Below, piece after piece: positions 62 to 56,928 of a stretch of DNA of 64,000 bases. The DNA is from an uncultured Clostridium sp. (GTDB taxonomy: Bacteria; Bacillota; Clostridia; TANB77; CAG-508), in contig CAMLUO010000001.1 of the NCBI GenBank assembly GCA_946487895.1, forward strand, positions 41,540-105,539, given 5' to 3'. The position numbers were made by a program, and so were the translations under genes. The notes beneath the pieces are model-generated. The model ran no database searches, was not told the origin of the DNA, and was given only the letters and a program-made list of their open reading frames with translations. Each line of letters begins with the position of its first letter. Positions within the stretch are counted from its first letter, which is position 1.

Positions 62-128
62 TAAACAGGGATTCAAGGGACGGTCCTAAAAATCCCTGTT
101 TTTAGGGATTCGGGGACGGACCTTTAAA
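62..128. repeat. GGGGACGG-family repeat: one full 32-nt unit plus a partial direct copy
   Basis: The element reads cagggattcaagggacggtcctaaaaatccctg tttttagggattcggggacggacc. Confidence 0.65.
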
Positions 129-230
129 TCTAATTAATCAAAATTTTTATTTATTATTTACAAAAAGGTGAATTTTTATGTGTATTTTTTTAAATTTAAA
201 TAGTTTTCTTAGTTTTATTCACTATTTTAC

Positions 231-259
231 TTGAAAAATAATAAAATCCAATATATAAT
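231..259 (+). promoter_or_regulatory. Sigma-A-like promoter (TTGAAA, 17-nt spacer, TATAAT) upstream of the three-gene operon
   Basis: ttgaaa at 231-236, a 17-nt spacer, then tataat at 254-259. The first ORF follows with an aggagg RBS. Confidence 0.35.
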
Positions 260-290
260 TGACATAACTTAATATAAGGAGGTATATATT

Positions 291-608
291 ATGAAACTAT
301 CATTAATTAATGTATTTCAGAATGCTAGTTTTAAAAAATTAGACTGGCTGCCAGATTTGTTTTTTGGAATTGGATTTTTTGTTACTTTCTTGGCTATGTT
401 TTGGTTTCGGCCCAACTTAAACTGGCTTGCAATGTTAATGCTTCCCATATTGGTCGGCCTAGTAACAGAAGGATTATTTATGGTTATACATGGAATTTGC
501 ATCTGTTTAAAAAGCGATAACCATGAAATAAGATACCATAAATTTGATGAAGAAGATGACAAAAGTTATATATCTTCTAAATCTGATGAAAGATATAATA
601 AATTCTGA
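291..608 (+). CDS. Small membrane protein with two predicted TM helices and a charged C-terminal tail, hypothetical
   Basis: An AGGAGG RBS sits 7 nt upstream of the ATG. Two hydrophobic segments are present. It is first in the operon with the Ubl and rSAM-JAB genes. Confidence 0.4.
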   Translation: MKLSLINVFQNASFKKLDWLPDLFFGIGFFVTFLAMFWFRPNLNWLAMLMLPILVGLVTEGLFMVIHGICICLKSDNHEIRYHKFDEEDDKSYISSKSDERYNKF

Positions 609-698
609 AATTCCAAAAACAATTTGCAATAATATTGAAAGGAGGGTAGTTTTTTAGTAACAAGTAGACTCTTTTGTATTATGAAAGGATAAATTATT

Positions 699-52948: not shown

Positions 52949-53506
52949 CTAATTGAACAAATTCATAGCTTTGTCTATTCCGTTTTTTATTATTTCTATA
53001 ACTGCATCTCTTGCTAAATCAGTACTTTTATTTAATATTTTCTGATCTTCTTCTGGAATTTTTCCTATAACATAATTGATTAAATCTCCTTTATGTTCAG
53101 GCTTTCCAATTCCTACTCTCACTCTTGGGAATTTTTCAGTTCCTATTTCTTTTATTACTGATTTCATTCCATTATGTGTTCCTGGTCCTCCTGTTTTTCT
53201 TAATTTAATTATTCCTGGTTCTATGTCTATATCATCATATATGATTATTAAGTTTTCTGTATTTAATTTATAGAAATCTATTATTTCTTTTACACTTTCC
53301 CCACTTAAATTCATATATGTTTGTGGTTTCAATAAAATAACTTTTTCTCCTTCTATTACCCCTGTCCCATATATTCCTTTGAAATTTGTTTTTGAAAATT
53401 TTATGTCATATTTTTTTGCTATTTTATTCACTGTATCAAATCCCATATTATGTCTTGTATTTGAATATTCTTCTTCTGGATTTCCTAATCCTATAATTAT
53501 ATACAT
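52949..53506 (-). CDS. pth: Peptidyl-tRNA hydrolase
   Basis: MYIIIGLGNPEEEYSNTRHNMGF... Confidence 0.9.
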   Translation of the reverse strand: MYIIIGLGNPEEEYSNTRHNMGFDTVNKIAKKYDIKFSKTNFKGIYGTGVIEGEKVILLKPQTYMNLSGESVKEIIDFYKLNTENLIIIYDDIDIEPGIIKLRKTGGPGTHNGMKSVIKEIGTEKFPRVRVGIGKPEHKGDLINYVIGKIPEEDQKILNKSTDLARDAVIEIIKNGIDKAMNLFN

Positions 53507-53702
53507 TTTTTGCTCCTTGTTTTTTTATCACAATTATTTTATTCTTATATATTTTAACCTTTTTTTCTACTTTTTGCAAGCGATAAGCTTACTTTGATAA
53601 CTTTTCTCTATTTTTTATTTGTCAACAAGAAAAAAGCACCTTCAAAAAAGTGCCTTTAATTTTCTTACTATATACGTAAAATCTTTGATTTTCCCTATAT
53701 AA

Positions 53703-53987
53703 TTATTCTGCTGATTCTGTTGAGTTTTCTTCAGCTTCTGGTGCTTCATAAGCTTCTAAGATAGCTTTTTGAATTTTCTCTCTTGTTTCAGCATTGATTG
53801 GATGAGCTATATCTTTGAATTCTCCGTTTGGAGTTTTTCTACTTGGCATAGCTATAAATAATCCATTTTGGCTTTCGATAACTTTAATATCGTGAACTGC
53901 GAATTCGTTATCGAATGTTACAGAAGCAACAGCTTTCATTCTGTTCTCTGAATTTACTTTTCTTAAACGTACATCTGTGATTTGCAT
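53703..53987 (-). CDS. spoVG: Septation/sporulation regulator SpoVG
   Basis: [11 protein letters not shown]...[20 protein letters not shown]. The start is taken at MQI, matching B. subtilis MEVTDVRLRR as I recall it. Confidence 0.85.
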
Positions 53988-54294
53988 TTTAAAATGCACC
54001 TGCCTTCCCTAAGTTTAATTTTGTACATATCGTTTAATTCTATGTACATTTATATTATTCTGCATAAAAAACTTTTTTCCTTCTTTTTTTTACAAAAAAG
54101 TTAGATTTTATTAATACGATTTATATCAGGGCTTTAATTTATATTTTCTAGGTTATTTATTCACATTTTATTTGATTTTTCATATTATAAAATATAGTTT
54201 TTTTATGGTATTTTTAGTAGAAGTATTGAATTTTCACGTATTTAAGTATATAATACTTTTACTAAATGAAAATTCCTAGGGGAGTGATTTTTTT

Positions 54295-55677
54295 ATGCCA
54301 GATATAACTAATTTAAAAAAATATAAAAATATACATATGATTGGAATTGGTGGCGTTAGTATGAGTGGAATAGCCGCAATATTAAAAAATTGGAGCTTTA
54401 ACGTTACTGGTTCTGATATGTTTGATTCTGAAACAGTACAAGAATTAATAAATAATGGAATTAATGTTACAATTGGTCACAATTTAGAAGATGTTGCGAA
54501 TTCTGATGTTGTGGTTTATTCTGCTGCAATAAAAAAGGATGACCCAGAAATGTTAGAAGCAAATAGGCTTAATATTCCTACTATTGAAAGAGCTGATTTT
54601 CTAGGTGAGATTACTAGATGTTATACAGATACTATATGTATTTCTGGAACTCATGGAAAGACTACTACTACTTCTATGGTATCTATTGCATTTATTGAAG
54701 CTTTAAAAGACCCAAGCATTCAAGTTGGAGCTTATTTAAATGCTATTAAAGGGAATTATCTAGTTGGTAATAGTGAACATTTTATTATTGAAGCATGTGA
54801 ATATGTTGAAAGCTTTTTAAAGTTTAGCCCTAAGGCTGAAATTATTTTAAATATTGATAATGACCATTTAGATTATTTTAAAACTTTTGATAATATAAAA
54901 AATGCTTTTATTAAATATGTTAAATTATTGCCTGATGATGGTATTTTAGTAATTAATGGCGATGATAAAAATTGTTTAGATTTAAAACAATATACAAATG
55001 CAAAAGTTACTTCTTATGGTATTGATAATAAAAATGCTGATTTTTATGCTGATAATATTGTATTTGATAATGATGGATTTGCATCTTTTGATGTATATCA
55101 TCAAGGTAATTTATTTGGACATTTTAGTCTTTCAGTTCCTGGAAAGCATAATGTTTTAAATGCATTAGCATGTATTTGTTTATGTGCAAATTATTCAATT
55201 GACGTTCCACATATTCAATCTGCTTTGAAAAAATTTACTGGAGCACATAGAAGATTTGAATTTAAAGGTAGAATAAATAATGATATTAGTGTTTATGATG
55301 ATTATGGTCATCATCCTACTGAAATTGTTGCAACTGCAAATTCTTTGAAAAATAAAAAATATAATGAATCTTGGGTTATTTTTCAACCTCATACATATAG
55401 TAGAACTAAAAATTTATTAGATGATTTTGCAAATGCTTTGTTAAATTTTGACCATATAATTGTTTTGGATATTTATGCTGCAAGGGAAACAAATACTTAT
55501 AATATTTCTTCTAAAGATTTAGTTGATAAAATTAATTCTTTGGGTAAAACTGCTTTATATATTCCTGATTTTGATGAATGTGTTTCTTTTGTAAAGTCTC
55601 GCGTAAAACCTAATGATGTTGTTATGACTTTAGGTGCTGGTACTGTTACTCAAATTGGCCCAATGTTATTAAAATAG
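54295..55677 (+). CDS. murC: UDP-N-acetylmuramate--L-alanine ligase
   Basis: GIGGVSMSGIA and GTHGKTTTTSM motifs. Confidence 0.9.
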   Translation: MPDITNLKKYKNIHMIGIGGVSMSGIAAILKNWSFNVTGSDMFDSETVQELINNGINVTIGHNLEDVANSDVVVYSAAIKKDDPEMLEANRLNIPTIERADFLGEITRCYTDTICISGTHGKTTTTSMVSIAFIEALKDPSIQVGAYLNAIKGNYLVGNSEHFIIEACEYVESFLKFSPKAEIILNIDNDHLDYFKTFDNIKNAFIKYVKLLPDDGILVINGDDKNCLDLKQYTNAKVTSYGIDNKNADFYADNIVFDNDGFASFDVYHQGNLFGHFSLSVPGKHNVLNALACICLCANYSIDVPHIQSALKKFTGAHRRFEFKGRINNDISVYDDYGHHPTEIVATANSLKNKKYNESWVIFQPHTYSRTKNLLDDFANALLNFDHIIVLDIYAARETNTYNISSKDLVDKINSLGKTALYIPDFDECVSFVKSRVKPNDVVMTLGAGTVTQIGPMLLK

Positions 55678-56928
55678 AGGGATTTTAAGCTCCGTCCCCG
55701 AATCCCTCTTGCTTGTTTTAACATTATATCTCCAAACACTGCATACCCTTCTTCTGGATTATTTACTAACACATGTGTAACCGCTCCTATAAATTTTCCA
55801 TTTTGAATTATTGGTGAACCTGACATTCCTTGTATTATTCCTCCTGTTTTCTCTAATAATCTGCTATCTGTTACTTTTATTTCCATACTTTTATTATCAT
55901 AATTATTTTCTTTAAAAATTTTCTTGATTTCTATCTCATATTCTTGTACTGTTTTATTATCTAAACTACAAAGTATTGTTGCTTTACCCAGTTGTATCTC
56001 ATCTCTTGTTGCAACTTCCATTTCTTTTGAGGTATCTATACTTAATCCTGATAAATTATCTACTTTTCCATATATTCCAAATTTTGTGTTTTTATCTATT
56101 TCTCCTATATTTACTTGATTTTCTATTGTACCTTGTATTTTTCCCGGATTTCCACTTTCTCCTTTTGTTATATTTAATATTCTTGTTGTTACAAACTCCC
56201 CTGATGCAATATTTATTAATTCTCCTGTGTCTATATCTGTTATTCCATGTCCGCAATGCTCCAAATGTTTTCGTACTTGGTTCATAAAATGTTACTGTTC
56301 CGACTCCTGCTGCACTATCTCTTACCCATAATCCTAATTTATATTCATCTTGGCTTGTTTGTACTGGCTCTATGCTACATTCTTTGCTTTCTTCTTCATG
56401 TATATATGTTATTTTTATATCTTTTCCATTAGATTCATTAACACATTCTACTAATTCTTCTGTTGATGCTATATATGTTTCATTTATTTTGGTTATTCTG
56501 TCTCCTTCTTCTATTCCTGTATTTTCATATGGTTTATACATTTTATTGTCTATTCCTTCTATTTCTGACATTCCTACTACTAATACTCCACTTGTATATA
56601 GTTTTACTCCTGCAATGTTTCCTACTGGTATTACTGTTGTTTTTGGTATTACTGATACATCAATATTCTTTATAAATAGCTTGTCAAATAGACTTATTGT
56701 TATATTTTCTTTTCCCACTTGATTTATAGTTTTTTCTCCTGTGCTTGCTGAAACACTTAGAGCTTCATTTTCAGATTTCATAGTGATTCCAAAAAATGTT
56801 TTTAATGATATATTTTCTCCCTCAAATATTGTAATTTCATCTGGCATATAGTTTATCACTAAAATATATACATATATAATTAATAAAAAAATTAATAATA
56901 ACATTTTCTTTAAAAACTTTTTAAGCAT
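55650..56928 (-). pseudogene. spoIVB: Sporulation SpoIVB peptidase (S55) split by a 1-nt insertion
   Basis: The 278-aa ORF has a signal/TM segment and a PDZ-like region ending ...LGLWVRDSAAGVGTVTFYEPSTKTFGAL. The 211-aa ORF continues GHGITD...GMSGSPII, which is the catalytic serine region. The sense sequence is gca ttg C gga cat gga, and removing the c (plus-strand g at about 56253) gives TFGAL|GHGITD. Its 3' end overlaps murC by 28 nt. Confidence 0.8.
55677..55712. repeat. Partial GGGGACGG-family unit between murC and spoIVB
   Basis: The element reads gggattttaagctccgtccccgaatccctc. It encodes the last roughly 15 codons of the spoIVB reading frame (...RGIRGRSLKSLYF). Confidence 0.6.

Follow-up and report, generated by a model that had tools for sequence, protein, structure and literature searches.

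The stretch analyzed here (herein the window) comprises 64,000 nt of contig CAMLUO010000001.1 from an uncultured Clostridium sp.; it has 28% GC and 11% non-coding sequence and carries the genes gpr, def, priA, pheS, clpX, tig, metG, pepV, rimO, murC, and spoIVB. The identities of priA, pheS, clpX, tig, metG, pepV, rimO, murC, and spoIVB were confirmed via NCBIfam or Pfam, and the gene set, which includes gpr and spoIVB, indicates that the source is a spore-forming member of the Clostridia. A preliminary description of the window reported a dispersed family of short palindromic elements at nine sites; all nine were recovered, their ends unchanged or moved by a few bases, and a motif search of the window found no tenth clear copy. 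As set out below, these sites are hairpin repeats resembling repetitive extragenic palindromic (REP) sequences, and probably substrates of a Y1/HUH transposase of the REP-associated tyrosine transposase (RAYT) type.

The motif common to the nine sites is over-represented in the window. GGGGACGG occurs six times against an expectation of 0.02, a count reached in none of 100 shuffles; GGGGAC occurs 14 times (3.0 expected) and GGGACG 12 times (1.2 expected). Together the sites cover ∼520 nt (∼0.8% of the window) and hold 16 of its 26 GGGAC/GTCCC pentamers. What they share is an architecture, not a full sequence: a first arm, the motif (N)GGGGACG(G/T)T(C/T)C opening the loop, and a complementary second arm. 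The arms are 5 to 10 bp long and variable in sequence, the loop measures 12 to 16 nt, and each site outperforms its own shuffles in a fold check (z from −2.1 to −9.3). The preliminary description had placed a shared core inside the hairpins; the core is indeed common to the sites, but it lies in the loop, on the 5′ side next to arm 1, and not in the stem.

Unrelated simple terminators, or G+C-rich hairpins sharing GGGGAC by chance in an A+T-rich genome, could in principle give such a picture, as arm sequence and arm length vary among the sub-types and only a 6- to 8-nt core is common to all nine sites. The core exceeds shuffles 5- to 300-fold, however, identical 32-nt units occur 25 kb apart, and the core invariably opens the loop right after arm 1, whereas the ordinary terminators of the window lack any GGGGAC-type motif. 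The enrichment, the identical units, and the loop-position test rule out unrelated simple terminators, an outcome for which the preliminary description had allowed, and leave chance resemblance with a negligible probability.

Family A has arms of the form xAGGGATT/AATCCCTx and the hairpin sequence CAGGGATTAGGGGACGGTCCTAAAAATCCCTG; its copies are 66-98, 13108-13143, 38748-38780, 38826-38857, and 55676-55709. Exact copies of the 32-nt unit stand at 13109-13140 and 38749-38780, and a copy with a single mismatch at 38826-38857 (minus strand). Family B, with arms TGTCGCAT/ATGCGACA or TGTCC/GGACA that often continue with TTTTGTCCAnnnnGGGACACATC, comprises 27645-27688, 37118-37178, and 50287-50340; GGACATTTTTGTCC is exact at 37152 and 50302, and 37127-37178 is 79% complementary to 50289-50340 across 52 nt. 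Where two sub-types had been proposed we distinguish at least four, the copies at 19453-19500 and 31275-31335 being separate variants. The units are imperfect palindromes of 32 to 36 nt, and this size and their mostly extragenic position are those of classical REPs. The 32-nt unit occurs, as had been claimed, singly, in tandem, and inverted: solo, as a unit plus a truncated second unit (66-130; 38800-38857, minus strand), and as an inverted pair (38748-38857). This inverted doublet corresponds to a REP doublet forming a hairpin (REPIN) or bacterial interspersed mosaic element (BIME), and relatives contain many pairs with an 8-nt spacer, as well as pairs 150 to 300 nt apart.

The first site (66-130, plus strand) is a family A composite between the divergent gpr, which starts near position 55 on the minus strand, and an open reading frame (ORF) at 291-608. 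A full hairpin unit at 66-98 (CAGGGATT-CAAGGGACGGTCCTAAA-AATCCCTG) is followed in the same orientation by a truncated second unit at 103-130 (TAGGGATTCGGGGACGGACC...). Orthologous copies lie ahead of gpr in two relatives (loci from relatives are given by L numbers; L008 and L029), and this unit-plus-half-unit composite is the commonest arrangement among relatives. The family A solo unit at 13108-13143 (plus strand) directly follows the priA stop codon (CTA at 13141-13143, TAG on the minus strand) and lies ∼20 nt upstream of the def start, within the priA-def operon; on the mRNA strand no T-run follows it. At this site the window has a solo unit, whereas L039 has, between identical outer flanks, a ∼290-nt composite with two inverted units.

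A variant composite at 19453-19500 (minus strand; TGCATT-GGGGACGG-CCCCCTTTTGCA...TGCAAAA-GGGACAGG) touches the pheS stop codon (19501-19503). The pheS 3′ end of an orthologue (L082; 79% identity) has no element there, and pheT follows ∼50 nt on. The ∼470 nt between pheS and pheT at 18982-19452 are likewise absent from the L082 spacer; they contain a 101-residue ORF (19015-19320) that has a good ribosome-binding site, matches nothing in Pfam, and resembles none of the fetched loci. The family B solo hairpin at 27645-27688 (minus strand; GTGTCGCAT-TGGGGACGTTTCTC-ATGCGACAT, then T7) sits at the clpX stop codon (27687-27689), which falls within the A/T-extended outer stem, five bases ahead of the core G+C stem GTGTCGCAT. 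Relatives' loci contain ∼25 near-identical copies of ATGTCGCATTGGGGACGTTTCTCATGCGACAT, and in L031 a family A composite occupies the same position at the clpX 3′ end. The placement of copies right after stop codons in the preliminary description thus holds, with the stops of priA and pheS touching the repeat and that of clpX inside the outer stem.

The fourth sub-type (31275-31335, minus strand) is a ∼60-nt hairpin whose stem consists of two inverted GGGGACA cores (GGTAGGGGACATTCCT...AAGGTGTGTCCCCTGTCA); four similar copies occur in L036. The family B composite at 37118-37178 (plus strand) reads TGTCC-TTTTGGGGACGTTTCTTTTT-GGACA-TTTT-TGTCC-ATTTAG-GGACACA and separates metG (start 37105, minus strand) from the divergently transcribed pepV (start 37346); L018 has an orthologous copy. 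Both had been assigned to gene 5′ ends, and we find the former ∼30 nt upstream of the tig start (31247) and the left end of the latter abutting the metG ribosome-binding site.

The REPIN-like inverted pair at 38748-38857 joins a plus-strand unit (38748-38780), a T-rich spacer, and a minus-strand composite (38800-38857), both of family A, and folds with −37.5 kcal/mol (z −9.3). The composite lies 9 nt downstream of a 6S RNA gene (38867-39059, minus strand; Rfam RF00013, 86.5 bits, E 1e-15) that has its own terminal T7 run. The last two sites are the family B composite at 50287-50340 (minus strand), which supplies the end of RimO, and a family A-like solo unit at 55676-55709 (minus strand; AGAGGGATT...CCGTCCCC...AATCCCTCT) between convergent murC and spoIVB, which overlaps the murC TAG stop codon (55675-55677).

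The family is not confined to the window. Scanning a degenerate family A pattern against 185,579 species genomes returned at least 107 stretches from ∼25 metagenome-assembled genomes (MAGs) of uncultured gut Clostridia (the BRZ_ and Chicken_ series, UMGS1531, HGM13681, and others), and solo, direct, and inverted arrangements are all present among the matches listed. Across 132 distinct units, arm pairing reaches two positions past the fixed arms and is kept through base changes (position 1, 81% against 68% expected; position 2, 50% against 30%). Most family A units in relatives are placed at gene ends, 97 of 139 lying within 60 nt of a gene 3′ end. Among 131 evaluable units, 128 are not inside ORFs and only three lie wholly within one; 45 are read into by an ORF, 27 lie within 10 nt after a stop codon and 16 at 11 to 60 nt after one, 19 precede a start codon by no more than 60 nt, and 21 are elsewhere in intergenic DNA.

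Orientation is equally biased. For the 84 units beside exactly one gene 3′ end, GGGGACGG is on the coding strand in 69 (82%; p = 2e-9), and in the window six of the seven copies next to a gene 3′ end are co-oriented with that gene. At lagging-strand genes, seven of eight units follow the gene and not the replication strand, so the bias follows transcription rather than replication. Bias toward the G-rich strand is the pattern expected of IS200/IS605-like insertion; here 83 of 130 units are on that strand, a figure explained by gene direction, and we therefore do not regard the replication strand as what chiefly sets the orientation. Some transcript-level selection, or an insertion step coupled to transcription, may be at work.

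This pattern raises the alternative that the repeats are mainly functional RNA elements, 3′-end hairpins that terminate transcripts, block 3′ exonucleases, or bind proteins and are maintained by selection, with an incidental or historical link to a transposase. Besides the 3′-end preference and the co-orientation, arm pairing kept through sequence change and the T-runs after the clpX and pepV copies speak for it. The terminator role proposed in the preliminary description is nevertheless unsupported for most copies: a T-rich tail follows just 13 of the 69 co-oriented units, the priA-def copy lacks a T-run, and a simple terminator scan that called ordinary terminators in the window passed over the unit hairpins because their loops (12 to 16 nt) are too long. 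The copies that do fit a terminator are 27645-27688, the clearest, and 38748-38790. Some copies also precede genes (tig, metG, gpr), and one lies between priA and def within their operon. At the gathering threshold, Rfam recognized only the 6S RNA in the window and nothing in 14 relatives' loci, so a described RNA family was rejected. Finally, the same motif flanks a Y1 transposase gene, inverted, across phyla. A role in RNA would account for the persistence of the repeats, not for their spread, and therefore complements transposition by a RAYT-type enzyme; as the principal explanation we consider it unlikely.

The position at stop codons has consequences for proteins. The preliminary description held that PepV, RimO, and SpoIVB end in residues translated from a repeat, and comparison with orthologues agrees, the stop codons lying inside or beyond the repeat. 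RimO of the window ends in ...YDLIACPFGDVS; the family B repeat provides (..A)CPFGDVS and a TAA stop (50317-50340), and the profile TIGR01125 ends at residue 452 of 460. A RimO orthologue 72% identical (L086) ends in ...YDLIGEGI at a family A unit, and one 61% identical (L093) ends in ...YDLIAEILKKD, with no repeat and an ordinary terminator after the gene. PepV of the window ends in ...AILFLGDRD, for which the unit at 38748-38780 supplies ...(D)RD and a TAG stop (38747-38758); the 59% identical PepV of L043 ends in ...AIYELAGIEGRS (...ELAGIEGRS), also at a family A unit, read in another frame.

SpoIVB of the window ends in ...KQARGIRGRSLKSLYFNNIGPI, and its S55 domain ends at residue 189 of 211. 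The repeat is translated here as described (...ARGIRGRSLKSLYF), but the protein does not end within it: past ...SLKSLYF it runs six codons (NNIGPI) into the antisense of murC, to a stop codon at 55650. Orthologues, and strains 97 to 99% identical, that have no repeat end in ...KQ(A/T/S)RE(L/I/V)(N/E), for example ...KQARELN, whereas the window and many strains continue ...KQARGIRG into variable repeat-encoded tails (RSLKSLYFNNIGPI, RSLKSLLFK, TELKIPLF, RSLKSLFLRILSSVPKIPSI), which differ between strains 94 to 99% identical. Repeat-bearing and repeat-free alleles thus coexist between strains at least 94% identical. Repeat-bearing alleles have one or two units between spoIVB and murC, where repeat-free alleles have a coiled-coil ORF of 158 to 172 residues, which implies replacement or deletion and not simple insertion. 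In L194 (2179-2697) and L193 (1185-1661) this 158- to 172-residue ORF has heptad-like repeats of the RNEMHEQINGL type, and it occurs only in strains without a spoIVB-murC repeat. Repeat-encoded tails recur in relatives, in which ∼60 frames open for at least 100 codons end at or in a family A unit, with recurring tails xRD, xGI, GIEGRS, and GLGDGPKNP.

The spoIVB gene has a further peculiarity. One extra base at 56250-56270 (minus strand; GCATTG-C-GGACATGG, orthologues ..GALGHGI..) splits it into two overlapping frames (ORFs 56092-56928 and 55650-56285). Every sampled strain of the species has this split, into a 231-residue PDZ part and a 196- to 217-residue S55 part, and more distant orthologues have one 291-residue protein; possible readings are a fixed frameshift, a split gene, and a pseudogene.

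The reading of the nine sites as RAYT substrates rests on a transposase gene found in relatives. An ORF bracketed by inverted cores (L051, 3286-4086) matches Pfam Y1_Tnp (E 3e-15), and its best NCBIfam match is REP_Tyr_transpos (63.5 bits, against 21.9 bits for IS200). Family B composites, inverted relative to each other, stand on either side of the gene. The same flanks accompany a 69% identical homologue in L095 and the homologues in L200-L206 (P0128), and in L037 a hairpin lies 3′ of a 42% identical copy. The flanking sub-type in L095, L051, and L200-L206 is the one with GGACATTTTTGTCC, as at 37118-37178 in the window. L095 (BRZ_NR__bin75) is the closest sampled relative, with PriA 91% and SpoIVB 96% identical to those of the window, and its transposase-flanking repeat is nearly identical to window positions 50287-50340. 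P0128 is recorded in 148 index blocks and has a single syntenic context in the contigs read (mreB, a miaB-like gene, a small ORF, the RAYT, radA, disA). Many homologues are on contigs of ∼1 kb, as expected if the repeats interrupt assembly.

Sequence and predicted structure agree on the class of the enzyme. The homologues retain the HUH (NHVHL) and Y (RYIHQNP) motifs, with H60, H62, and Y119 invariant in 24 homologues. A single-sequence search of the PDB with the transposase gave no match, and the family profile matched one entry, 4ER8 (Escherichia coli TnpA_REP). The AlphaFold model (predicted local distance difference test score 83.5) has a helical C-terminal extension of ∼130 residues, and a fold search with this model placed 4ER8 first (E 1.5e-5), followed by the IS608 and ISDra2 transposases (both ∼1e-3) and the IS200 transposases. 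In the C-terminus, Pfam found no significant helix-turn-helix (HTH) or DnaA_C domain, only a trace of HTH_7 (E 0.18) in one homologue.

Searching metagenomes with the transposase alignment returned 423 relatives, of which 80 loci were kept and the flanks of 28 inspected (GC 26 to 63%). Most of the 28 have flanking inverted repeats with GGGGACGGTTC, GGGACCGGTTC, GGGACAGGC, or GGGGACGGTCC, the last of which is the family A core and was seen at L123; hairpins that carry the loop motif of the window copies also border homologues from other phyla. Over the 80 loci, 79 of 260 cores lie in the loop of a perfect stem of at least 6 bp, compared with 18 of 260 control positions, and the core-bearing stems have 56 different arms. 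This placement of the core on so many arms connects families A and B alike with the transposase group, and it suggests that this class of transposase recognizes a loop motif on arms of variable sequence.

Several observations weigh against the RAYT reading. The 64-kb window has no Y1 transposase by tblastn, and the RAYT score of the L051 protein (63.5) is under the curated equivalog cut-off of 80. No transposase gene among the 80 metagenome loci is bracketed by family A (AGGGATT arms), the commonest type, so that its link to the enzyme depends on the loop motif common to both families and on its presence in the same MAGs. The classical REP tag GTAG is absent, being found at the 5′ junction of one of 39 solo units. 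Co-orientation with genes tracks transcription, which simple replication-fork transposition does not predict, and the "empty" spoIVB allele is not a clean empty site, as a 172-residue ORF stands there. Weighing these points, we still hold RAYT substrates to be the probable identity of the repeats. The preliminary description had proposed a mobile miniature element of REP type; dispersal, linkage to a transposase, and polymorphism support this, and we infer mobility from repeat polymorphism together with the transposase link.

Relatives also carry a larger palindromic element of ∼290 to 330 nt, absent from the window, in which two inverted family A units surround a ∼200-nt core (L039, 1335-1612; L045, 4412-4743; L047, 2366-2657; L052, 1290-1600; L078, 4493-4821; L100, 7000-7330; L094, about 2990-3290). 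The L039 copy is the one at the priA-def site. The core has the invariant motifs GAATGCGAATG, GGAGAATCTCAAACTTGCTTTGAGAGGTGCC, and ATGTTAGCCGAGAAATGA, and its stems differ between copies, even within one MAG. The element folds with −87 kcal/mol (z −16.6), with compensatory changes in 12 of 45 predicted pairs among only seven copies; a permissive Rfam scan gave chance-level matches only. Viral contigs contain neither the unit nor this ∼300-nt core, and a phage origin was rejected on that basis. A further sub-type, GGTCAGTTTGGGGACAGGTTC...GGGACGGCACTT, forms inverted pairs ∼155 nt apart (L017, 5792-5947; L111, 2012-2169), and related GGGACAGGCAC hairpins flank a transposase homologue in L117. 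At L062 (4556-5833) a group II intron reverse transcriptase/maturase (RVT_1 and GIIM) has a family B hairpin at its 3′ side, and the ORF upstream of it ends ...GDVS...

Inverted pairs 150 to 300 nt apart around a conserved core, in a dispersed and polymorphic family, are also what one would expect of conventional miniature inverted-repeat transposable elements (MITEs), deletion derivatives of insertion sequences that end in inverted repeats and are mobilized by a DDE transposase. Direct-repeat matches of 3 to 5 bp at the borders of 39 solo units are, however, at chance level, and target-site duplications of 2 to 5 bp are no more frequent than chance. Single 32-nt units and direct unit-plus-half-unit forms make up the majority, no DDE transposase was seen between inverted copies, and the Y1 transposase is the only gene repeatedly bracketed. 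Conventional MITEs are accordingly a very improbable explanation, and the Y1/HUH enzyme remains the preferred one.

The closest described systems are the TIRtrons, in which RAYT-like genes (TIRYT) stand between inverted repeats with GGGGWSAS in common (Di Nocera 2013, PMC3733652). The corresponding TIR families were called "moderately abundant" and dispersed, and REP ends were found often to supply the TAG stop of neighboring ORFs; neither Firmicutes nor Clostridia are mentioned (PMC3733652). As in TIRtrons, the enzyme in our relatives is a RAYT-like Y1 transposase longer than classical RAYTs and has inverted flanking repeats whose motif is in part of the GGGG-A/T-S-A-S type, and the flanking repeat is also dispersed as singles, dimers, and clusters, some self-complementary. 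The dominant motif here, in contrast, is GGGGACGG or GGGGACGT, with G and not A at position 7; GGGGACAC fits GGGGWSAS only at the inner end of family B (50289-50300, minus strand; L095) and at 31278-31287. The present repeats also differ in being clear hairpins with the motif in the loop and in their REP-like density (9 sites per 64 kb). Quentin 2018 (PMC6006769) identified TIRYT with TnpA_Y1 subclass 2.1 and saw no REP-like sequences around the corresponding genes, and Bertels 2017 (PMC5581495) reported Group 1 RAYTs in Clostridia whose flanking 16-mers have only ∼12 occurrences. Members of subclass 2.1 have a C-terminal extension with a domain resembling Bac_DnaA_C, HTH_23, or HTH_28; the enzyme of the relatives has its ∼130-residue helical extension there, in which Pfam gives no significant match to such a domain. 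Judged by these resemblances, the enzyme is probably the TIRYT of Di Nocera 2013, roughly TnpA_Y1 subclass 2.1 and a Group 1 RAYT.

Like the REP, BIME, and REPIN sequences of E. coli and Pseudomonas, the repeats are imperfect palindromes of 20 to 40 nt, extragenic and mostly after genes, that form inverted doublets; the Y1 transposase gene bordered by inverted repeats (a REPtron), here in relatives and for family B, is single-copy and vertically inherited. Classical REPs exceed ∼100 copies per genome; for the present repeats the corresponding figure is a density, 9 sites in 64 kb. The likeness extends to the lack of target duplications, to repeat ends that can provide a stop codon, and to 4ER8 as the best fold match. 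Unlike classical REPs, they have no 5′ GTAG at the foot of the stem and carry the conserved motif in the loop, the host is a Gram-positive spore-former of 28% GC, the transposase has the ∼130-residue extension, and co-orientation with the upstream gene is strong. The Rickettsia palindromic element (RPE), Correia/NEMIS, and ERIC families (PMC3184786) likewise include short palindromic repeats that add residues to ordinary proteins. RPEs, however, lie in frame inside genes and have a CGTC tag (PMC3184786), whereas here the last few residues are replaced, with the repeat's own stop codon, and only 3 of 131 units lie wholly inside an ORF. The HUH/Y1 fold, a presumed recognition of sub-terminal hairpins on single strands, and lack of target duplication are shared with IS200/IS605, from which the present gene differs in being single-copy at a conserved site instead of multi-copy, in its symmetric inverted flanks, in having no tnpB, and in scoring lower on the IS200 profile than on the RAYT profile (21.9 versus 63.5 bits). 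In the searchable literature we found no description of the repeat family, and its motif strings matched only primers. REP-like repeats at gene ends, including donors of stop codons, are documented in other bacteria; the repeats described here belong to the TIRYT/RAYT-associated kind, and their REP-like density, loop motif, and co-orientation with genes are of modest interest.

These results can be brought together in a working model. The transposase, a single-copy gene at a fixed locus in close relatives with inverted family B flanks and expected also in the window's own genome, would be the enzyme of the repeats. It would bind the folded hairpin and loop motif on single-stranded DNA, then cut and rejoin the DNA, so that copies may still be spreading or being deleted without target-site duplications. 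Copies would survive in places of little consequence, which in a compact genome such as this are stop codons and the few bases beyond them. Where a copy landed a few codons before a stop codon, or replaced it, translation would enter the repeat and end at the repeat's own stop, the TAG in ATTAGG or the TAA in CCTAAAA, which may be how tails such as -DRD, -GI, -GIEGRS, -CPFGDVS, and -GIRGRSLKSL... arise. An effect at the RNA level could contribute to retention.

The window has two other sets of repeats. One is a second repeat family, unrelated to these hairpins, with copies immediately 3′ of xseA, nusB, and an Asp23-like gene (8183-8302, 9550-9623, and 10337-10456); two of its copies are 120 nt long and 96% identical, with an internal palindrome (TTTGAAATTTATGAGGCGTAC...GTACGTTGATTAAATTTCAAA) and no GGGGAC motif, and exact 21-mers of it also occur in L020, L052, L076, and L103. 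At 59271-62806 (minus strand) are five tandem paralogous small genes, which show up as DNA repeats D1-D3 with as much as 89% identity over 299 nt; their products have a conserved hydrophobic N-terminus (MENASKALI...) and no Pfam match and may form a cluster of pilin- or pseudopilin-like proteins.

The repeats explain odd, non-homologous C-terminal tails (-DRD, -GI, -GIEGRS, -GDVS) of conserved proteins in MAGs of low-GC gut Clostridia, and they account for contig breaks around the transposase gene and for structural variation between near-identical strains. They also offer a Gram-positive case of the REP type for a transposase class formerly described without typical REP partners. We put forward more tentatively, as a possibility that we do not favor at present, that gut Clostridia harbor a complete REPIN-type replicator: a subclass 2.1 / Group 1 RAYT, a GGGGACGG loop motif across phyla, insertion or retention coupled to transcription and to gene 3′ ends, in line with the 82% of units that are co-oriented and the third that overlap a coding-sequence end, and the ∼300-nt palindrome as a larger replicating form. 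If so, a class of transposase published as having no, or only sparse, REP-like partners would have them, and replacement of C-terminal tails would be a systematic and ongoing source of protein variation between strains.

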